Virus record (IMG/VR): IMGVR_UViG_3300045988_139374
Span: 32,001 to 96,000 of that record
Reading direction: 5' to 3' (one strand)
Source of the DNA: a virus
DNA length: 64,000 nt
This document shows, in pieces, positions 10,308-60,112 of the stretch. Position 1 is the stretch's first letter, and every line of letters begins with the position of its first letter. Below the pieces are notes generated by a model that saw only the letters and a list, made by a program, of their open reading frames with translations, did not search any database and had not been told where the DNA came from. The translations under genes were made by a program, and so were the position numbers.

Positions 10308-10634
10308 TAAGATGAATAAAATATGGCTCACGTTAAATTGCTTAAATTGCGGGGACAATCCCATAACCTTAGTCGACTACAACGTAATCAGAAATGATAA
10401 GCGTGATAGTGGCATGAGTTTTGAACTCAACAGCTTGAAATATAGTAGAGACCATAAGAACTGACTAAGCTAGGATCAACCGAGTGTGCAAGTCACTCAG
10501 ACGCAGCGAAATCTTCTATAGAAATATAGGTGAGACGTTCAACGACTATAATAGCAATAAGTTTAGTATTTTACTAAATGATAAGGTATAGTCTACTCCC
10601 GTACTTAAATATCGGGAAACCGAGGGTAGAAAGG
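10308..10634 (+). mobile_element. Group I self-splicing intron (ORF-less) in nrdD
   Basis: Canonical core elements: aaattgcgggg (P-like), gttcaacgacta at 10537-10548 (R) and aaggtatagtc at 10583-10593 (S). The 5' exon gtgggt can pair with intron ggctcac, with a U.G at the splice site. Intron ends in G. Splicing restores RRTCG-YIG. Confidence 0.85.
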
Positions 10635-31765: not shown

Positions 31766-32791
31766 TTAGAAATTATTAAATTCTCCGTTATTAATAACAA
31801 CGACTTTCTTAATAGAATTCAAGTTAGTATTTTTAGCAAGATGAGTACGAGGATCAATAGTATAATCCTCAATAACTAGATTAGAAGTAATAGGCATATT
31901 GGGAATTACTTCTCCAGTTCTAGTATTCATCCACTGGAAATACTTAGCTCCAGTTGCTTGGTCGTAAACGATGACTTCTTCAATATCAGGATTATTATCA
32001 TTAAGCATTAGATTTTGCTCAGGAGTTAGATGACTCATAAAGTTATTCATTCCTGCATCAACTCCAGCTTGAATCTGAGGAGGATAATCCTGTCTAATAA
32101 CACCAGTACCACCAGTTAGATTAATAGTATTAGGTAACGTATAAGAAGGAGCACCAACAGGAGCAGAAATAAATGCAGAATATGCATCCATAATTGCCTT
32201 ATTATCATCAGTTTGATCAAGTGCTTTCATATCCTTATAACGACGATACTCGTTATCAATGATAGCCTTAGTAGTAGCATTACGTTCTTTAATAGCTGCA
32301 AGTTTTGTGGAAAGCGCAGAGTTCATAGCAGCACGAGTTTCATTAATATAGTGATACTTGCCCTTCATAGATCTCTGAGATTTCATATAAGCAATATCTT
32401 GAGCACAGTCCATAATAATACCATCTGCTTGAGCAATAATAGTATTGGTCATAGCATTTGTATCGCTATATTCATCAGCATATACTGTATTTTCTACTGT
32501 CTCTCTAGGAGATACTTTATTATCTTCTTGAGCAGAATCATCTGTATTCTTTTTCTTTCTAGCTTTCTTAGGTTTTGTAGAGATAATATCAGCAGTCATG
32601 GTATTTCCATCTACAGAAATAGGTACAGAAACATTGGTTCCAATTAGACTAGAAAAATTGGGCATTGTCTGATTGCTAGTTTGTGTAACAGTTCCTAGAC
32701 TAATGGCTTGGACATCATTGGGCTTTCCATCGGTAGTATAGCTTTGATGCTCATCTACCATGGTAGGTACTTTAGGGAATTCGATTGCCAT
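31766..32791 (-). CDS. Hypothetical protein (341 aa)
   Basis: ORF with RBS aaaggag. Lys-rich patch KPKKARKKK. Confidence 0.55.
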   Translation of the reverse strand: MAIEFPKVPTMVDEHQSYTTDGKPNDVQAISLGTVTQTSNQTMPNFSSLIGTNVSVPISVDGNTMTADIISTKPKKARKKKNTDDSAQEDNKVSPRETVENTVYADEYSDTNAMTNTIIAQADGIIMDCAQDIAYMKSQRSMKGKYHYINETRAAMNSALSTKLAAIKERNATTKAIIDNEYRRYKDMKALDQTDDNKAIMDAYSAFISAPVGAPSYTLPNTINLTGGTGVIRQDYPPQIQAGVDAGMNNFMSHLTPEQNLMLNDNNPDIEEVIVYDQATGAKYFQWMNTRTGEVIPNMPITSNLVIEDYTIDPRTHLAKNTNLNSIKKVVVINNGEFNNF

Positions 32792-32913: not shown

Positions 32914-34470
32914 ATGCAAGACAATGAAAAAAGTAAAAAGAAATCTTTTATAGTAAATAATGAACAATTTGAATTATTAATCCCAGGATATCCAAAAGGT
33001 TCTGATATTACAGTTATTAATACTTCTTATATTCCTAGAAAAAAGAATGATGATGGAACGTATCAAAAGGATTATATTGTAATTCTATTTAGAGACAATA
33101 TAACTGGTGGTAAAAAAGTTCATGTGATTCAAGAACCTTTGTATACTTTCTATAGAATCAAAGATGAAAGTCAAATTCCTAATTATACAATGTTCTTCAT
33201 TGAGAAAGAAAAGGTAGTTCCTTATACTTGTAAATATGCAAATATTCTGAAAGCAATTGCTGAGGTTACTGGAAGAATTGATGAGTTTCTTGAAAATGTA
33301 AACAATGGTCAGTATAGTGAGAATAAAAAACTTCATACAGATCCTAGTATATTCATGTCTGATATTCAGATTGAGAATTATTATAGATTTCTGTTTAATC
33401 TATCTTACAAGAATGAAGTTTTTAAACTTACTAAGGGATTTCTAGATATTGAAACTGATATTGCATATTGTCTAAATCAGTTTCCTGAACCTGGTGAAGT
33501 TCCTATTAATGCAATAGCTTATTGCGATGAAGCTCACAATACAGTGTATCAGTTTATATTAAATGATAGAAATAATCCTTTGGTTGAAGAGTATATGCAT
33601 TATACTGATAGACCTGGGTTCCAGAAAGAATTGTATGATTTCGTTGTAAATGCTGTAGGTGGATATAAGAAAGCTGTTAAATTCGGAGTAGATAAGATGG
33701 AATATAAACTTATCTTCTTTGATGACGAATATGAGCTTATTAAAACAGCATTTAAAATCATCAAAGCTACAGTTCCAGATTTTATTGAAGTCTGGAATAT
33801 GGCATTCGACTTGAATTATATTATAGAGAGAATTAAAGTTCTTGGCCATGATGAAACTGAAACTATATGTGATGGAAGATATCCATATTCATTTTTGAAA
33901 TTCTATGTAGATGAGAGAAACAAGAATAACTATGAAGAACGTGGTGATTACGTTGCCGCTTCTATGTATACTGTTTGGCTCGATCAGATGATCGAATTTG
34001 CATCTAGAAGAAAAGGTAGAGGCAGATATCAGAGTTTTAAACTGGATGCAATTGGTGAAGTTGTAGCTGGTGTTAGAAAACTAGATTATTCTCATATTAC
34101 TACTGACTTAGGTAAGCTTCCATATATTGATTTTAAAACATTCTCGTTCTATAACGTAATGGATGTTATTGTTCAGAAATGTATTGAAGCTAGTACTAAT
34201 GACCTTGAATATGTGTTTACTAAATGTCTAGTCAATAATACTAACTATGCGAAATGCCATAGACAGTCTGTATATCTTGCAAATCGATTCTGTAAAGACT
34301 TTTATGAATATGGATATGTAATCGGTAATAATAAAAATCTTTGGAATGAAAAGCCTACTACAAAATTTCCTGGAGCTATGGTTGGTGATCCAACTCATAA
34401 TGCAGATAGTGTAATGCTTCACATTAATGGTAGGCCAACTCAGTTGTCAAATAATGCTGTTGATTTCGAT
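32914..34470 (+). CDS. Family-B DNA polymerase, exon 1 (N-terminal and 3'-5' exonuclease domains)
   Basis: Exo I FLDIETD, Exo II VWNMAFDLNYI, Exo III YNVMDVIV. The frame ends at ..AVDFD immediately before the expected SLYPS. Confidence 0.85.
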
Positions 34471-34859
34471 TAACTAAGTAGTCGCATCTTTATAGGAATA
34501 TAGAGATGAAAACTTTATTGCAAAAGCTGGAAAAGGCTAAAGCTCTTCTGCCATTAGAAATAATGGAATCGAAAGATAGAAATAAGTGAAGAGATGGACC
34601 AAGGTGAAATAAAAGCTATATATTGAATAAGAGATAAATATATAGTCCTAAAGTCTATTAACAATGTCTAATCAGCACCTAGATAATTCTAGAGTTCAAC
34701 GACTATTCCGAAAGGAATTAGGGCCAAGTGGTACCGAAGTATAAAGGGTCCCAATGCTTATATAAGTAATGGATTGTGATATAGTCTAGCCTCTAGGTAA
34801 CACCTAGAGAAGTTCATAAGAGAACTGCAAAGATTAACGACCTTTGTGAATAAACTGCG
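34471..34859 (+). mobile_element. Group I self-splicing intron (ORF-less) in polB
   Basis: gttcaacgacta at 34694-34705 (R) and gatatagtc at 34778-34786 (S). Exon cgat can pair with intron gtcg. Intron ends in G. Splicing gives VDFD-YSSLYPSII (motif A). Confidence 0.85.
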
Positions 34860-43869: not shown

Positions 43870-45231
43870 TCAATAGTTATTGCCCTTAATAGAAACACTA
43901 TGGGTATGCTGTGCGATGCTATGAGTATGAGCAGTCGGCTTAGTGTAGCTGTGGCTATGAGCAGCAACCTTAAGAGCATAGGTGAAGGTGTTAGTGGTCG
44001 GAGTAATAGTATGGCTATGAGCTCCAATAGTAACACTGTGGCTATGAGCAGCGATAGTAACACTATGAGAGTGGCCACCTGCAGAGGTAGTAGCAACAGT
44101 ACCAGCACCTGCAGCACTCAGAGTTGCACCGGTGACATAAGTAATAGTATCACCAACAGTTGCAGAGACACTATGAGTATGTGCACCTGCAGCACCAGTT
44201 ACAGAGACACCAGTAACAACAGACTTGGAGCCAGTAGCAACATTGACAGTATGGCTATGAGCAGCAATAGTAACACTATGAGTATGTGCACCTGCAGCAC
44301 CAGTTGCAGAGACACCAGTAACAACAGTCATAGAACCAAGACTCAGAATGCCATCAGCATAGCTTGCAGGAGATGCTGCAGTACCAGTACTAGGAGTGAT
44401 GCTATGAGAGTGACTACCAGCAGAGCTGGAATTAACAGTAGCACCGCCACCAGCACTTAGAGTTGCACCAGTGACATAAGTCAGAGTTGCAGTACTAGGA
44501 GTGATACTATGAGTATGATTGCCAGCGGAACCAGTTGCAGTACCAACAGCAGTAACAGGAGAAAGTGTTGCAGTTGCAACATTGACAGTATGGCTATGAG
44601 CAGCAATAGTAACACTATGAGTATGTGCACCAGCAGAAGTAGAAGTAATAGTAGCCGCACCAGCTGCTGCAGAAGTAACAGTAGCACCACCACCAGAACC
44701 AGTAACAGTAGGAGCACCTGCAGTATCAGTAATACTAACAGTAGTATCGATAGCACCACCAGCACCAGTGTTAGAAGCTGCACCTGCACCTGCAGAACCA
44801 GTTGCCGTAGCACCAGCAGTAGCTGCAGTACCACTTAGAGTAATCTGGCCCTTCTTAGCGTAATCAGTCAGGTCAGTTGCAGTGGTGCCAATCTTTTCCC
44901 AGACATACTGAACATAACCAGCAGCGCCAGTACTATCGGGGCCCTTATCAATAGTAACAAATTCAACATAGGTACCAGAAATACCACCATCATTAGCGAC
45001 GAGGTAAATCTTACCCATAGTACTAGCTGCAGCAGTGGTAGCAGGAGCACCAATAGCACCATCTCCAGCAGCTTCTTTACGAGCATTATCAGTTACAAGC
45101 TGAACGCCTGCATTAATCATATCAGCAATGTTTTGCCAAGTCTTCGGATTACCAGATCCGTCCTGGATGTACTTAGCATTAAGGTCATAAGATACGCCTT
45201 CGACCTTAATCTGTTTGATGTTATCAGCCAT
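43870..45231 (-). CDS. Tail-fibre-like protein with 13 HxH motifs
   Basis: A/T/G/S-rich repeats of the form AGAHTHSVTIAAHSHTVNVAT. High-expression codon usage. Its N-terminal domain is related to that of the 45421 gene product. Confidence 0.6.
   Translation of the reverse strand: MADNIKQIKVEGVSYDLNAKYIQDGSGNPKTWQNIADMINAGVQLVTDNARKEAAGDGAIGAPATTAAASTMGKIYLVANDGGISGTYVEFVTIDKGPDSTGAAGYVQYVWEKIGTTATDLTDYAKKGQITLSGTAATAGATATGSAGAGAASNTGAGGAIDTTVSITDTAGAPTVTGSGGGATVTSAAAGAATITSTSAGAHTHSVTIAAHSHTVNVATATLSPVTAVGTATGSAGNHTHSITPSTATLTYVTGATLSAGGGATVNSSSAGSHSHSITPSTGTAASPASYADGILSLGSMTVVTGVSATGAAGAHTHSVTIAAHSHTVNVATGSKSVVTGVSVTGAAGAHTHSVSATVGDTITYVTGATLSAAGAGTVATTSAGGHSHSVTIAAHSHSVTIGAHSHTITPTTNTFTYALKVAAHSHSYTKPTAHTHSIAQHTHSVSIKGNNY
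44237..44292. repeat. 56-nt exact direct repeat, copy 1 (inside the fibre gene)
   Basis: gcaacattgacagtatggctatgagcagcaatagtaacactatgagtatgtgcacc, identical to 44576-44631. Confidence 0.85.
44576..44631. repeat. 56-nt exact direct repeat, copy 2
   Basis: Identical to 44237-44292. Encodes the repeated AHTHSVTIAAHSHTVNVA unit. Confidence 0.85.
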
Positions 45232-54782: not shown

Positions 54783-55007
54783 ATGGTTATTCAAAATCCA
54801 TCAACTCCAATTACTGTTTATTATCAAGATAGTACCACTAATCAGAGTTTTATGAATATGTATTATTTTCTTAAAGCTCGTGGTATTAAGAATAATAAAT
54901 TCTTTTTGTTGTTGTATGATGGTGGATTAATGGGCGTAGACCCAAGGGACCCAAATCTACCTAAACCAATGAAGATGCGCGTTCTTCGAGAATGCATGGT
55001 TAACTAT
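54783..55007 (+). CDS. terL: Terminase large subunit, exon 1 (3' boundary uncertain by a few nt)
   Basis: A 75-76 codon ORF ending ...RECMVNY(W), followed by intron-like sequence. Continues logically into ...FIRELCRIP (compare T4 gp17 VYFAETYCAI). Confidence 0.7.
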
Positions 55008-56230
55008 TGGTAAACTAAGAAATGCCCCTCATTATGGTGACATAGTGTTGAATGCTATTGAACTGCTGGGAAAGGCTAAAGCTCTCTTACCTACAATCAG
55101 GTGTCGAAAGACAGAAACAAGTAGAGAGATGGGTCATGGTGAAATAAAAGCTTATTATATTTCTATCCCTATTATAATAAGTCCTAAAACCTAAAATCAA
55201 TGTCTAATCAGCAACCAACAAACTTATATTAATCTATTTCAATTTTACTAGGAGGGTTAATATGAGTACCAACGGCAAACCTTTAAACGATATTACTGGA
55301 AAGATTTATCACAGTAACAATTGTGGAGATTTTGAAATCTTAGGTGAGATCGAGTATGTAGGAAAAGAGATTCATACAAGTCCATCAAATACAAGATATG
55401 CTTTGAGATTCCTGAATACAGGATATGTAACTGATGCATCACTAGATGCAATTAGACATGGAAGAGTATATGATAGATATACTCCAAATGTTGCTGGGGT
55501 TGGATATATTGGAACAAATATGATTATCAGTGATCCATATCCTTGCCAGTTTTATAAAGCTTGGAACGATATGATGAATAGATGCTATAATAAAGCTGAT
55601 AAAGATTATCCTTTATATGGAGGCATCGGAATCACAGTAGATCCTAGATGGCATAACTTCTCTACATTTATGCTTGATGTTCCATTTCTTCCGCTTTACG
55701 AAAAGAAGTTAATGTATCCTTCTATTTATCAACTTGATAAAGATTTTCTACAAATTCATGTTCCTAAAAATAAAAGAATTTATTCTAGAAATACATGTAT
55801 GTGGTTATCAAAACTTGATAATGTTTTAATGATGTCAAAAGATCGTGATATTAAAGATGGTAATCCATATGTAGGTGTAGTCTATTCTCACAATTGCTGG
55901 AAAACTGTAATAAATGGAGCAGTCTATGGAAAATTTAATGATCCTAAAGCTGCTGCAAATCTTTTCAATTATTTATATCCAAAGCTTAAAGGACCTTTTA
56001 ATGATATCACTATTCTAAATAATGTAGAATATATTCCATTAGAAGAATTGTCGAAATATATTGTTGGTTCAACGACTATCCAAACTGGAGTAGAGCCGCC
56101 TAAAACGGTTCGAAGTAATAGCACACCTCCAATTAATTTTACAGCTACAATTGGAGATGAAGATATAGTCTGAGCTTATGTAACACATAAGATTAACAAG
56201 CGTTAATATATAAAAAATAACGCAGGTACG
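55008..56230 (+). mobile_element. Group I intron in terL carrying a homing-endonuclease-like ORF
   Basis: The 5' part (55065-55213) is clearly homologous to the polB intron (34526-34677). gttcaacgacta at 56067-56078 (R) and agatatagtc at 56161-56170 (S). The ORF sits in a loop closed by aaccaacaa (55213-55221) and ttgttggtt (56061-69). Exact splice sites not resolved. Confidence 0.8.
55262..56173 (+). CDS. Intron-encoded homing-endonuclease-like protein of the YGGRGI family
   Basis: WNDMMNRCYNKADKDYPLYGGIGITVDPRW.NFSTF and YQLDKD...YSRNTCMW match the free-standing paralogs. RBS aggagg. The last codons overlap the ribozyme R and S elements. Confidence 0.7.
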   Translation: MSTNGKPLNDITGKIYHSNNCGDFEILGEIEYVGKEIHTSPSNTRYALRFLNTGYVTDASLDAIRHGRVYDRYTPNVAGVGYIGTNMIISDPYPCQFYKAWNDMMNRCYNKADKDYPLYGGIGITVDPRWHNFSTFMLDVPFLPLYEKKLMYPSIYQLDKDFLQIHVPKNKRIYSRNTCMWLSKLDNVLMMSKDRDIKDGNPYVGVVYSHNCWKTVINGAVYGKFNDPKAAANLFNYLYPKLKGPFNDITILNNVEYIPLEELSKYIVGSTTIQTGVEPPKTVRSNSTPPINFTATIGDEDIV

Positions 56231-58246
56231 ACTAATTTCATAAGGGAACTATGTAGGATCCCAACCGAAGGCGGTGCAGTTGGAGCTGGTAAAAGATTCG
56301 AACTAAATCGTGGTAACTTAGCCATGGCATATATGTTCGTTTATAATATTAACCAATTTGTAGAATTTCCTCGACAGCATGGTAAAACTGTTAGCGCCCT
56401 TTGTTGGTATCTTTGGGTTTTTAATTTCGGTGCAACAAATACTAGAATAATGTTTGCTAATAAGAAGCATGAAGACTCTAAAGCAAACTTGAGAACCATG
56501 AAGAATCTAAGAGCTGCCTTACCAGAATATTTGCGTATGGAAGCTCAGTTAGATAGAGATGGTAAACAAATACGTGCTCCAAATACAGCAGAAACATTAC
56601 AGAATCCTATAAATAGAAACTTGATTACCACTCTACCTGGTGCTAGAACTCCGGCTCTAGCAGAAGGTGCAGGACGTGGTGCTACAGTTGCAATTCAATA
56701 TTATGATGAGTTTGCTTTCTTGCCTTATAATGATATTGTATATACTGCTGCTATGCCTGCATTCTCTAAAGCATCTGAGAACGCTAAGTCTAATGGATCT
56801 CCTTATGGAGTATTGATTACTACTACTCCTGGAGACTTGACTACTAGAGAAGGTCAATTTGCTAATCATGTTAGATTGAATGGTACTGAATGGAATGAAA
56901 GTTTTTATGACCTAAGTTATGATGATCTTAAGAAAGTCATTGATGCTAATACAGATTCTAACTTCATGCATATTAGATATACTTATCAAATGCTTGGTAA
57001 TGGTACTGAGTATTTTGATCGCATGGTTAAGGATCTGCAGAAAGACTGGGTTAAGATTCGTCGTGAGGTTCTACTAGAATGGGCTAAGACTGCTGATAAC
57101 AGTCCTTTTAATAGAGAAGATTTGGATATTATCGGAGCTCAAGTAAAGCAGGAACCTAGAAGTATTTTGAGATTTGGTAAAGCTGGACAATTCGTAATGA
57201 AGATTTGGGATACTATACCTATGAATAGTATGTATCCATTCATTATCGGCGTTGACGTTTCTTCTGGTATACATAAAGACTCGTCTGCTATTACAGTTAT
57301 TGATTCTCAAACTACTAAAGTCATTGCTACATTTAAATGTAACTTTATTACGATGCCAGAATTGGCTGATATGATATATCAGTTTACAACTACTTATGCA
57401 AAGAATGCTATTATAAATATCGAAAACAATGGAGGTTTTGGAAGTTCTGTTCTACAGATGCTTATTAAAACTTCTATTAAAAAGAATCTCTATTATGAAA
57501 TTAAAGATCGTATAGATGAAGAGCAATTTGATGGAATGACAGTCAAGCGTAGACCTAAGAAATGTAAAGTCTATGGCTCTACTTCTGGAAAGAATAAACG
57601 TAATCAGCTTATTGAATTGCTGCATCAAAGAGTTCAGCATCATAGAGATAAATTTAATAGTAAAGATATTTATGATGAACTTTGCACAATGGTTGTTAAG
57701 CCTAATGGTAAAGTAGAGCATGCAGACGATGCACATGATGACTTGGTATTCTCTTATCTTTGGGCTTTGTATGTTTTCTATTATGGAGAAGATCTTGCTA
57801 CAAGATTTCATATTATGAAGACAGAGATCTATACTGATGATCATTATGATGAAACTTCTTATAGTCTAGAAGAAGAATATGGTGAAGAAGGAGAAAAACT
57901 AGATCCTAGTGTATTTGCTGATGATGCAGATGCTACTACTCATATGATAAATGATCAGCTCGATTATTTGAGCAAATCTAAGCGTATGAGTATGGAAGAT
58001 TTCCATCTTGCTCAATTAAATGAAGATGAGAAATCTCTGGAAAGAATCAGAAAAACTACAATAGGAAGAAAAGCTATCTCTGATGCTTATCATATTCCTG
58101 AAGATTATTTGGAGAAGCAAGAAAATAATGGATATACAGATATTAGTGCAGATCTGAATAAAATTTGGTATGGAGATAATTCTAAGAATCCTACTAACCC
58201 AACTTTAGCAGGAAACTTAAGTGATCTATTTAATAGAATAAATTAA
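56231..58246 (+). CDS. terL: Terminase large subunit, exon 2
   Basis: The frame is open from 56207. Walker A-like FPRQHGKT, Walker B YYDEFAF, nuclease motifs IGVDVSSG and AHDDLVFSYLWALYV (compare T4 gp17 YHDDLVMSLVIFGW). Confidence 0.85.
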   Translation, partial: TNFIRELCRIPTEGGAVGAGKRFELNRGNLAMAYMFVYNINQFVEFPRQHGKTVSALCWYLWVFNFGATNTRIMFANKKHEDSKANLRTMKNLRAALPEYLRMEAQLDRDGKQIRAPNTAETLQNPINRNLITTLPGARTPALAEGAGRGATVAIQYYDEFAFLPYNDIVYTAAMPAFSKASENAKSNGSPYGVLITTTPGDLTTREGQFANHVRLNGTEWNESFYDLSYDDLKKVIDANTDSNFMHIRYTYQMLGNGTEYFDRMVKDLQKDWVKIRREVLLEWAKTADNSPFNREDLDIIGAQVKQEPRSILRFGKAGQFVMKIWDTIPMNSMYPFIIGVDVSSGIHKDSSAITVIDSQTTKVIATFKCNFITMPELADMIYQFTTTYAKNAIINIENNGGFGSSVLQMLIKTSIKKNLYYEIKDRIDEEQFDGMTVKRRPKKCKVYGSTSGKNKRNQLIELLHQRVQHHRDKFNSKDIYDELCTMVVKPNGKVEHADDAHDDLVFSYLWALYVFYYGEDLATRFHIMKTEIYTDDHYDETSYSLEEEYGEEGEKLDPSVFADDADATTHMINDQLDYLSKSKRMSMEDFHLAQLNEDEKSLERIRKTTIGRKAISDAYHIPEDYLEKQENNGYTDISADLNKIWYGDNSKNPTNPTLAGNLSDLFNRIN

Positions 58247-58361: not shown

Positions 58362-59504
58362 ATGAAAGAATTATTAATCGAAGGAAAATATGCTACTGCA
58401 AAGGTATTTACAGTAGACAATGAGAAGGATGCAATTGATCAGCATGCTAAAGCACAGATTAAAATGATCTGCGATGATGAAGTATCTAAGGATGCTATCA
58501 TTCGAGTTATGCCTGATGTCCATGCTGGAAAAGTTGGTCCTATTGGTCTTACAATGAAATTAAATCATTGTAGAATCATTCCTAATCTTCTTGGTAATGA
58601 TCTTGGATGTGGAGTTAGCATTTTCAAGATCCATCCTGGGAAGAAACTTACTACATCTGATTTTAATAAATTGGATAAAGTAATTAGAGAGAATATTCCT
58701 GTAAATCTTGCAAGAGGGCCTAGGGATTTATATGGATTTGGTGTGATCAATGCTTTAGGATTTAATACTCCTATACATTCTGATAAGCTGACTCTCTGTT
58801 ATGGAACTCTTGGAAATGGTAATCATTTCATTGAGATCGATATGGATGAGCATGGAGAATATTATCTTACTATTCATACCGGTAGTAGATCTATTGGCCC
58901 TGTTATTAATGATTATTTTAATAGAAAGGGTCAAGAAGAACTCAAATTAAAAGGAATCAATGTTCCTTATGAAATGACATATGTAGAAGATATGTTATAT
59001 GTCCAATATGTAGATGATGTTCGAAAAGCAACTGAATTTGCAAGATTGAATAGAAATAGAATTAGATCTATCATTTGCAGAAAGATGAAATGGGATTCAG
59101 AAATTGAATTTAATGCTCCTCATAATACAATTTCTGAAAAGCATTGCCTCTGTAAAGGAGCAGCATGCGAATTTGAAATGGAGAATAATATCTATATTCC
59201 TATCAATATGAAAGATGGCATTCTCTATGGAGAATTAAATGCAAAGAATAGTGATGAATGGAATTATTCTCTTCCTCATGGTTCCGGCAGATTAATCAAA
59301 AGAAGCGAAGTTAAAAACTCTGTTACTCTTAATATGTTTAAGAAGGAAATGGATGGAGTATTCTCTACATCTGTTTCTAAGGATACACTTGATGAGTCTC
59401 CTTTTGCATATAGAAGAATTGATGAAATCAGAGAAGCTGTATCTGATATTGTCAATGTAAAAGGTGTACTTACTCCTGTGTATAATTTCAAAGGAGGAAA
59501 TTAA
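58362..59504 (+). CDS. rtcB: RtcB-family RNA 3'-phosphate ligase
   Basis: MPDVHAGKVGPIG, GNGNHFIEID, HTGSRSIG, APHNT and LPHGSGR, the ordered RtcB metal- and GMP-binding motifs. Confidence 0.85.
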   Translation: MKELLIEGKYATAKVFTVDNEKDAIDQHAKAQIKMICDDEVSKDAIIRVMPDVHAGKVGPIGLTMKLNHCRIIPNLLGNDLGCGVSIFKIHPGKKLTTSDFNKLDKVIRENIPVNLARGPRDLYGFGVINALGFNTPIHSDKLTLCYGTLGNGNHFIEIDMDEHGEYYLTIHTGSRSIGPVINDYFNRKGQEELKLKGINVPYEMTYVEDMLYVQYVDDVRKATEFARLNRNRIRSIICRKMKWDSEIEFNAPHNTISEKHCLCKGAACEFEMENNIYIPINMKDGILYGELNAKNSDEWNYSLPHGSGRLIKRSEVKNSVTLNMFKKEMDGVFSTSVSKDTLDESPFAYRRIDEIREAVSDIVNVKGVLTPVYNFKGGN

Positions 59505-60112
59505 TGCTAATTCAAATTAGTTCTGGTATCGGAGCTCCTGCAGAATGTGAGCGAGCAGTTTATCTCTTTTCACAGAAGCTCATCTCTGAACTTGATGCTA
59601 CTATTGTCAAGAAGAAAGAATCTGGATTTCATAAAGGATGCTATAAATCTTGCATTCTGAAAACTGATAAGCAAATTAATTCCATTGAATACAATGGCAC
59701 TATTCAGTGGATCTGTAAAAGTCCTTTTAGAATTGGATGGCCTAGAAAGAATTGGTTCATTGATGTGAGCACCATTGATGAAGCTCAATTTATCGATCCT
59801 AATGTTGAAGGGCAAATCTCTTATGAAACTTTTCGTAGTGGAGGAAATGGAGGACAGAATGTAAATAAAGTAGAAACTGCAGTAAGAGGAGTTCATAAGC
59901 CTACTGGGATTTCTGTAGTTTCTATGAAGGAAAGATCTCAGCTTCAGAATAAGAAGGATGTAGAAAATCGCATTTCTGAAAGAATTGTAGATATTAATAA
60001 AAATAGTGAAGCAATTCAAAAGAATTCTGAATGGAAAGAGATCAATAAAATTGTACGTGGCAATCCTATTAGAGTATATAAGGGACCAAATTTTAAAAGA
60101 ATCGATAAATAA
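59504..60112 (+). CDS. prfH: Peptide chain release factor H-like protein
   Basis: GGQ motif (SGGNGGQNVNKVETAVR). GTIQWICKSPFR..RKNWF closely parallels E. coli PrfH as I remember it. TAATG overlap with rtcB, with the SD inside the rtcB 3' end. Confidence 0.8.
   Translation: MLIQISSGIGAPAECERAVYLFSQKLISELDATIVKKKESGFHKGCYKSCILKTDKQINSIEYNGTIQWICKSPFRIGWPRKNWFIDVSTIDEAQFIDPNVEGQISYETFRSGGNGGQNVNKVETAVRGVHKPTGISVVSMKERSQLQNKKDVENRISERIVDINKNSEAIQKNSEWKEINKIVRGNPIRVYKGPNFKRIDK

Follow-up and report, generated by a model that had tools for sequence, protein, structure and literature searches.

Introduction

In group I introns the last nucleotide, omega-G, is treated as universal and as essential for the second step of splicing. 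In the standard form of that step, omega-G docks in the P7 helix (PMC3679873, PMC3984707). The hexacoral mitochondrial ND5-717 intron ends in A, and its exons are perfectly ligated in vivo (PMC6545197). In phages, group I introns of terL and polB have been described in Bastillevirinae and SPO1-like Bacillus phages (PMC11878797) and in gut 'Jug' jumbo phages (PMC12880540); in these systems splicing has been confirmed by experiment or by metatranscriptome, the latter in the gut jumbo phages. In the T4 td intron a hairpin sequesters the ribosome-binding site of the I-TevI open reading frame (ORF; PMC3073962). The 'core creep' hypothesis proposes that an intron ORF can be lengthened past a lost stop codon into the ribozyme core, with overlaps of 56 nt in the B. 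thuringiensis nrdF intron and 81 nt, the table maximum, in the Synechococcus lividus LSU intron (PMC3073962, Table 1). Here we analyzed the large terminase gene, terL, in positions 32,001 to 96,000 of the IMG/VR virus record IMGVR_UViG_3300045988_139374. This stretch of 64,000 nucleotides is called the window, and all coordinates refer to it and to its plus strand. The gene is split by an insert of 1,223 nt (55012..56234) with the architecture of an IA2-like group I intron, whose bounds are taken from about 20 intron-less alleles together with the P1 and P10 helices. The explanation that we regard as likely is a mobile IA2-like intron that sits in a Tyr codon of terL and has an A as its 3' end.

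The terL exons and the terminase reading frame

By homology, the host gene of the intron is the large terminase of a gut jumbo phage. Exon 1 (54783..55011) holds 76 codons and the first base of a Tyr codon, and its 3' end reads ..aac tat tgg t; taken as an ORF it extends from 54783 to 55013 and ends in ..ECMVNYW before a stop codon. The 76-aa product matches positions 8-72 of the terminase large subunit profile phrog_32359 (E 3e-19), and exon 2 (56235..58246; first codons ttc ata agg, (Y)FIRE) picks up the same profile at position 74, with one unmatched position between the exons. In tblastn, the intron-less TerL of Bacillus phage BpSp and of Staphylococcus phage DC4 align unbroken across the junction. 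Judged from these alignments, TerL truly begins with the 76-aa ORF. The original prediction, made from the letters of the window alone, had described this ORF and the main terminase frame on the two sides of a gap of about 1.2 kb and had called the gap a group I intron; every feature that it listed was found in its place, and the interruption is borne out by the continuity of the terminase profile and by the covariation-tested structure described below.

The terminase frame is open from 56207 (YIKNNAGTTNFIRELCRIPTEGG), and the called TerL ORF (56324-58246) contains the Walker A motif FPRQHGKT. Exon 2 matches phrog_32359 and Pfam Terminase_6N/Terminase_6C (PF03237 at 24.7 bits, cut-off 22; PF17289 at 21.1 bits, just under its cut-off of 22.6), TerL also matches phrog_2, and tblastn gives matches in 314 phage records. 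With its Terminase_6N ATPase domain and RNaseH-like nuclease domain, the protein is classed as a T4-type large terminase. The nearest isolates by TerL are Bacillus phage BpSp and Staphylococcus phage S6/DC4, with 37-42% identity. A megablast of the locus against 50,697 phage records returned 0 matches, and therefore its relatives there are found at the protein level only. Three independent assemblies, among them a 269-kb contig, agree in every base from 54783 to 56400, so that the locus is not an assembly artefact.

The predicted spliced TerL has 746 aa and a mass of about 85 kDa. Gene callers begin TerL at Met 56324 (640 aa) and so drop 106 N-terminal residues, namely those of exon 1, the Tyr at the junction and 29 from exon 2. 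Public protein sets contain TerL truncated in the same way (P0014, P0017, P0062 and P0114). For annotation this means that TerL is reported as ORFs of 76 and 640 aa, and that pipelines which insist on a terminal G would misplace the junction.

Architecture of the ribozyme

Alleles of the locus were recovered by searches with TerL and with the exon-1 peptide. A hand-drawn P1-P10 structure of 100 pairs was tested on 11 of them, aligned as 'mini-introns' with the ORF loops removed. Across this alignment 95.4% of the cells are paired and 44 of the 100 pairs show a compensatory change, whereas controls in which the structure was slid along the alignment gave 35-42% paired cells and 4-12 compensatory pairs, and no shuffle matched the real values. 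Helices P1 to P9 with the P3/P7 pseudoknot, as expected of a group I intron, are present and supported by covariation, and P7.1 and P7.2 lie between P7 and P3', as in subgroup IA2. The Rfam model Intron_gpI (RF00028) gives a local match of 25.5 bits in the window (E 6e-4) and 26.4 bits over the full model on the ORF-less allele L009 (E 1e-4), and a covariance model of the 3' core, built for this intron family, scores 109 bits on the terL intron.

P1 with the internal guide sequence (IGS; 55009..55026) pairs exon GGU (55009-11) with GCC (55024-26) and places U55011.G55024 at the 5' splice site; its pairs are invariant in 11/11 alleles, and the pairing is kept in L427 despite a different surrounding sequence. 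The P10 guide GAAAU (55019-23) pairs with AUUUC (56235-39), the five bases with which exon 2 opens; pairing in P10 is 98%, with a single covariation, from G-C to A-U, in L037. P2 is the hairpin CAUUAUG-GUGA-CAUAGUG (55030..55047), in which all 7 pairs are kept (100%) and 3 are compensatory. The 5' strand of P3 (55053..55060) pairs with 56116-56123 in the pseudoknot with P7 (8 pairs, 6 compensatory). P4 (55065-69 with 55208-12), P5 and two extension arms fill 55065..55212 and are 94-100% paired, with many compensatory pairs. The P6 strands aaccaacaa (55213..55221) and ttgttggtt (56061-56069) form 9 perfect pairs in the window, show 4 compensatory pairs across alleles and close the loop that contains the ORF; in ORF-less alleles a short hairpin replaces this loop. 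P7, the G-binding helix, is formed by GACUAU (56074..56079) and AUAGUC (56165-56170), and its six pairs are invariant in every allele, whether the intron ends in A or in G. P7.1 (56080-88) and P7.2 (56093-56111), together 56080..56111, show 3/3 compensatory pairs and 88% pairing, respectively, and the P8 hairpin (56124..56159) has 6 pairs, 4 of them compensatory. In the alignment P9 (56175-91) and P9.1 (GCGUUA 56200-05 with UAACGC 56218-23) follow at 56175..56223, and the P9.1 pair G56200-C56223 covaries to A-U in L009. Three elements had been named in advance and could be assigned: the stem said to close the ORF-bearing loop is P6, the R element placed in the 3' end of the ORF is the 5' strand of P7, and the S element read in the last ORF codons (gaa gat ata gtc tga) is J8/7 with the 3' strand of P7 (56165-70).

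Splice sites

In about 20 intron-less alleles there is always one codon (TAT, TAC or TTT) between an invariant Trp and the next aromatic residue, F, and one of these alleles, L018, encodes an exon-1 protein 100% identical to that of the window. Since one codon separates the two residues, a ligated sequence tgg t|at ttc is expected. P1 and P10 agree with it, giving 55011|55012 and 56234|56235. By homology and frame logic the junction would therefore lie inside the Tyr codon, restoring ..NYW-Y-FIRE..; the predicted ligated 40-mer is GAATGCATGGTTAACTATTGGT|ATTTCATAAGGGAACTATG, and the junction at the intron's terminal A reads TGGTATTTC. We also enumerated all combinations of a U-ending 5' site with a G-ending 3' site and asked which of them keep the frame open: there is no one U/G rule that suits all alleles, and UGGU|AUUU is the sole junction that does. 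A W-Y-F junction with a non-G intron end had been named in the original prediction and set aside there; the comparative data support it, and the comparison with intron-less terL alleles, which had been suggested as a check, resolves the junction through the W-x-F spacing.

The junction preferred in that prediction was 55007|55008 with 56230|56231, giving NY|TNFIRE (..TAT|ACTAATTTC). In its favour, this junction is in frame, follows the U...G rule and leaves the motif length unchanged. Yet it deletes a Trp that is invariant from the clade of the window out to Bacillus and Staphylococcus jumbo phages, and U55007 lacks the U.G pairing of P1, as its sole complement would pair it with an A inside P2. 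With this 5' site, moreover, L019, L020 and L418 have no in-frame G 3' site. We give this junction next to no chance. Two further routes were dismissed: splicing at G56230 followed by a +1 frameshift (tgg tac taa), for which the tRNA is unable to re-pair, and a recoded stop codon, which leaves the wrong frame. A scan of metagenome contigs for the spliced-junction pattern returned chance matches at 120/120 listed loci, the pattern being too degenerate, and when the exon flanks of the window itself were searched for in an allele that is intron-less or resembles cDNA, there were 0 matches.

A probable intron 3' end in A

Because intron-less alleles, P1 and P10 fix the junction, the 3' tail AGGUACGACUA (56224..56234) would place A56234, and not a G, at the omega position. 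In the first 11 aligned alleles the omega column is G in 7 and A in 4. Omega-G is found in L003, L009/11, L016, L024, L037, L039, L416/420, L426 and L427, among which L009, L416 and L426 are near-identical sisters of the omega-A introns; the other two introns of the window, in nrdD and polB, also end in G. Omega-A occurs in four tail variants: ...ACGACUA| (...GGUACGACUA|) in the window, L012-14 and L017; ...ACGUUA| (...GAUACGUUA|) in L019, L020, L418, L419 and L421; ...ACGUA| (...GAUACGUA|) in L417 and L423-425; and ...AAGUA| (...GGUAAGUA|) in L422. At the 5' end these introns show little or no difference from one another, with the same P1 and GAAAU guide throughout. Contigs that carry omega-A alleles reach 277 kb and come from at least 11 samples; among close relatives these alleles form the majority, with 8 of 10 places among the matches listed for the exon-1 protein P0201. 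ERR414328/9, SAMEA2338710 and ERZ15610135 are among the samples in which the phage occurs.

One possible option is that the intron is canonical and uses a cryptic omega-G further upstream, with TerL tolerating a short insertion in place of the conserved Tyr. In the window G56225 would give NYW-CTTN-FIRE and G56222 would give NYW-SGTTN-FIRE; a rival junction of this kind would read ..TGGT|GTACGACTAATTTC. With the 5' site defined by P1, each of the two keeps the frame and meets no stop, P7 is unchanged, and by eye the CA before G56225 could pair with the UG of J7/9 as P9.0. However, neither site has a P10 complement. In the omega-A alleles the nearest upstream G stands 4, 3 or 2 nt before exon 2, and because this distance varies these Gs are in different frames: in L019, L020 and L418 the homologous G is out of frame and a G at -6 (W-FN-F) would be needed, and L417 and L423, if the 5' site is the one set by P1, lack any G that is in frame and free of stops. 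The 1-2-nt indels that separate the alleles upstream would all be frameshifts, while the W-x-F spacing is constant in roughly 30 homologues. Splicing at a cryptic G is therefore rather unlikely.

Another hypothesis is that the omega-A copies splice incompletely, so that TerL works as an N-terminal piece of 76-77 aa and a C-terminal piece, or that the gene is defective in these contigs. An omega-A should cripple the second step, and in T4-like phages genes that were split by the insertion of a homing endonuclease and work as two chains are known. Against this, exon 2 has no in-frame start codon or Shine-Dalgarno sequence before Met 56324, and in none of the alleles does a start codon lie in frame after the last stop and ahead of the junction, yet the 29 codons before this Met are under purifying selection: within the 36 codons compared they differ mostly synonymously among the omega-A alleles (11:5 and 5:0 synonymous to non-synonymous changes, as examples). 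Because of this bias and the missing start, the stretch must be read as a continuation of exon 1. The core pairing is kept by compensatory changes inside the omega-A clade as well, and a defective gene would be at odds with omega-A being the majority form on near-complete genomes from many samples. We consider a split or defective TerL very improbable.

Exon ligation at an omega-A is the reading that we prefer, and we think it rather probable that such ligation is real. It is about equally probable, in our judgment, that a whole clade of phage group I introns ligates its exons in this way, with P7 unchanged and with near-isogenic omega-G alleles in the same population.

Alleles and mobility of the intron

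Three classes of allele are found at the terL site, all among close relatives: about 20 intron-less alleles, ORF-less introns of 350-394 nt (L003-8, L009-11, L016, L019, L020, L024, L037, L418-422 and L426) and introns with an ORF (the window and, with the same sequence, L012-14; L017, which is nearly identical; and L039, L416, L417, L423-5 and L427). When the window is compared with the intron-less L018, 15 of the first 30 nt of exon 2 differ, followed by 0-2 differences per 30 nt. Presence/absence polymorphism and co-conversion of the flanking exon are thus both seen, as expected for an intron that is mobile. Scans of viral contigs with the P7' word and the IGS word gave, among the matches listed, unrelated introns or chance hits, one of them a real but unrelated intron.

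The intron ORF and its protein

The loop of P6 holds an ORF of 303 aa (55262..56173) preceded by an AGGAGG Shine-Dalgarno sequence at 55250-55255, just as had been proposed for the gap. Its protein falls in phrog_2081 'HNH endonuclease' (E 4e-40), a label that in Bastillevirinae is given to I-HmuI-like intron ORFs (PMC11878797). It is one of a large family of phage proteins, about 260-315 aa in length, of which 80 homologues (P0121-P0200) were compared. At its N-terminus is a beta domain, followed by a conserved middle domain (R107 C108 .. D159 K160 D161 .. N187), an AP2-like DNA-binding domain at about 203-245 and a disordered tail (275-303) that is encoded by the ribozyme core. R107, C108, D159-K160-D161, Y174, S175, T178, C179 and N187 are invariant in the family, and the block LDKD..YS..TC.W..N lies in a beta-beta-alpha segment; by eye, these residues may form a degenerate HNH or beta-beta-alpha-metal site.

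An AlphaFold (AF2) model built from 53 homologues has a pLDDT of 86.5, with values below 50 in the tail. In the AP2 region it shows strands at 206-225 and a helix at 228-242, the three-stranded sheet and helix expected of such a domain, and the family profile matches the AP2/ERF domains of WRI1 and TEM1 marginally (E 0.0011 and 0.016). Many structural neighbours in BFVD are phage proteins labelled HNH endonuclease or AP2, by name only. The name 'endonuclease' that the original prediction gave to the ORF stands as far as the PHROG family names, the AP2-like domain and the mobility in the population go; it gains nothing from canonical nuclease motifs or solved folds, none of which was matched. 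The family is thus one of widespread phage proteins without a solved structure or identified catalytic motif.

The 3' end of this ORF runs through the catalytic core, as had been claimed. The overlap is 113 nt (56061..56173) and comprises P6', J6/7, P7, P7.1, P7.2, P3', P8, J8/7 and P7', and the UGA stop (56171-73) lies in J7/9. The ORF reads the core word gttcaacgacta as G-S-T-T-I. Many of the 80 homologues also end in GSTTI, others in VQRLS or NDY(P/S), which are GGUUCAACGACUAU read in all three frames; some extend to ..NDIVS.., that is GAUAUAGUC, and L039 retains an unextended ORF of 190 aa with its stop ahead of the P6 stem. These extensions in variable frames and the unextended L039 match what 'core creep' predicts, and overlap with the core is the rule in this ORF family, which offers a large natural data set for that idea.

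The start codon of the ORF is buried as well. In the minimum free energy fold, ACUUAUAUUAAUCU pairs with GGGUUAAUAUGAGU (55222-35 with 55255-68) in a hairpin at 55222..55268 that covers the AUG (55262-64) and part of the Shine-Dalgarno sequence. Equivalent start-occluding hairpins are present in L416 and L417, and in L427 with an unrelated sequence. Competition between translation and folding is plausible because td/I-TevI and 'core creep' provide precedents, and the conserved start-occluding hairpin fits it. That the two exclude each other, as had been suggested, is a reasonable inference with precedent which would introduce no new principle.

Proposed mechanism

The mechanism that fits our data begins with the folding of the terL pre-mRNA into a ribozyme, and the terL intron is probably self-splicing. 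An exogenous G bound at P7 (GACUAU/AUAGUC) would attack after U55011, which is held by P1 (GGU/GCC). The freed exon 1 would remain on the guide sequence while P10 (55019-23 with 56235-39) aligns exon 2, and ligation at A56234|A56235 would give the 746-aa TerL. As the 3' nucleotide of the intron is A, exon ligation must tolerate omega-A; positioning by P10/P9.0, or some cofactor, would presumably permit this, so that the second step would depend mainly on these and not on the docking of omega-G. Owing to the hairpin over the start codon, few transcripts would be translated, and a ribosome on the ORF would have to unwind P6-P7-P3-P8, so that translation and splicing would exclude each other on each transcript. 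The ORF protein most likely cuts intron-less terL alleles and so would drive homing.

Several points weigh against this explanation. Splicing, the ligated junction and omega-A ligation are all deduced from comparison of DNA. The G-binding helix P7 is the same in omega-A as in omega-G alleles, and in the Tetrahymena G414A work a change of omega from G to A reportedly blocks exon ligation unless P7 is changed too. The window also offers two in-frame upstream G sites, G56225 and G56222. The Rfam gathering threshold of 50 bits is not reached by the window, L009 or L003; the low score arises because the ORF breaks the model in the window and because the model copes poorly with IA2 insertions. The start-codon hairpin, taken alone, is statistically ordinary (z = -1.6). 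Lastly, no nuclease motif was found in the ORF in Pfam and NCBIfam (even at E 10 or E 1) or by PDB sequence search, and Foldseek against the PDB found no solved homologue (best E 0.16).

Neighbouring genes and other introns

Directly downstream of terL, at 58362-60112, lies a gene for an RtcB RNA ligase (Pfam E 1e-40) with a gene for a 202-aa protein with an RF-1 domain and a GGQ motif (SGGNGGQNV) overlapping its end, and the two form an RtcB-PrfH-like pair that is syntenic in relatives.

This neighbourhood brings in one further explanation, in which the ribozyme of omega-A alleles performs only 5' cleavage, with or without 3' hydrolysis, and exon joining is done or assisted by a protein, either an RNA ligase or a factor resembling a maturase. 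The ligase gene stands immediately after terL in the window and in relatives alike. RtcB joins a 3'-phosphate or 2',3'-cyclic phosphate to a 5'-OH, however, and group I cleavage makes no such ends, so that joining by RtcB was rejected as incompatible in its chemistry. RtcB is, moreover, paired here with a PrfH-like GGQ protein, and the RtcB-PrfH pairing is usually linked to RNA repair, which counts against a role in exon joining; conservation of P10 speaks for alignment of the exons by the ribozyme itself. For the coral omega-A intron, the authors hold that the mode of splicing needs closer study (PMC6545197), which leaves some room for a protein. All in all we give joining by a protein little credence and retain omega-A ligation by the ribozyme.

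Two more group I introns are present in the window. One is in nrdD (anaerobic ribonucleotide reductase; 10308-10634, plus strand; Rfam Intron_gpI 29.3 bits, E 0.0017): exon 1 ends ..RRTCG (ggg t|), exon 2 continues from att gga as (Y)IGTQFWNQGR, and the intron ends in the canonical G10634, with GGU|AU in the flanking exons just as at the terL intron. The other is an ORF-less intron of 395 nt in polB (family-B DNA polymerase; 34465-34859, plus strand), presumably the 'polB intron' of the original prediction. A covariance model hit (72.7 bits at 34696-34810) places it in one family with the terL intron, and its splice sites, placed by the DxxSLYPS motif, P1 and P10, are gat|...G34859|tac tct tct, with the canonical U and omega-G. 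A weak match of the covariance model at 43964-44070 lacks P7, lies inside a minus-strand ORF and was dismissed as chance.

The terL of relatives carries a second intervening sequence (L009 at about 1850-2236, and most of the TerL homologues P0001-P0017) that is absent from the window at about 57590 (..IENNG|GFGSS..). Gene callers read it as about 40 conserved 'junk' residues (..RVICxFHRVNCYEEGQE..QRDLxRCA). It contains the P7-like words CAACGAUCAU / AUGAUC, is not detected by Rfam, and ends by homology in G|...G| or U|...U|, again not the canonical U/G.

The tail word of the terL intron, AAAAATAACGTAGATACG followed by TTAAATTTTAA (56213-56240), also stands between genes in unrelated gut phage contigs of IMG/VR (L167 at 13424, L173, and L168 at 1263), in one case just upstream of a Shine-Dalgarno sequence and an ATG. 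Tried as a promoter word, the 18-nt tail motif occurs once in the window and has a few intergenic copies in unrelated phage contigs. This recurrence is consistent with chance, and the word could be a shared regulatory one.

Comparison with known systems

The T4 td intron with I-TevI (group IA2) resembles the terL intron in having P7.1 and P7.2, a P2 with a GUGA loop, the core words AACGACUAU / GAUAUAGUC, and an ORF in the P6 loop whose 3' end reaches into P6a/P7; the start-codon hairpin recalls the hairpin over I-TevI's ribosome-binding site. The likeness in sequence was judged by eye. The two differ in that the td ORF encodes a GIY-YIG enzyme, whereas the ORF here encodes a PHROG 2081 protein that has an AP2 domain and in which no nuclease motif can be recognised; in that the ORF shares 20 nt with the core in td and 113 nt in the present intron, where it extends to the far strand of P7; and in that td ends in omega-G and is hosted by the gene for thymidylate synthase, not by terL. 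The 'core creep' introns are alike in that their ORFs continue past a lost stop into core helices, with a length and frame that vary between copies, but the present overlap is longer than any in the published table (PMC3073962) and recurs across an ORF family in three frames.

In the Bastillevirinae, SPO1-like and 'Jug' phages, which are of a different lineage from the phage of the window, introns that often carry HNH-type ORFs, PHROG 2081 included, likewise split genes for terminase, polymerase and ribonucleotide reductase; in the passages searched of these papers (PMC11878797, PMC12880540), no non-G 3' end is mentioned. Introns of terL with endonuclease ORFs are thus already known, also from gut jumbo phages, and the original interpretation of this locus was right in outline and describes an ordinary case. 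The feature that deserves attention is the non-G 3' terminus, for which the omega-G sister alleles are natural controls: as natural omega-A and omega-G versions lie only a few tail nucleotides apart, ligation without omega-G is directly testable in vitro.

The coral ND5-717 intron shares the A at the omega position together with exon ligation. It is, in contrast, mitochondrial, vertically inherited and giant, with genes in P8, and some of its copies are removed by back-splicing; no omega-G sister alleles of it are available, whereas the intron described here is phage-borne, mobile and of small size, with omega-G and omega-A alleles that are nearly identical and found side by side. To our knowledge, omega-A ligation here would be the first such case from any source other than hexacoral mitochondria, and also the first for which nature provides omega-G controls.

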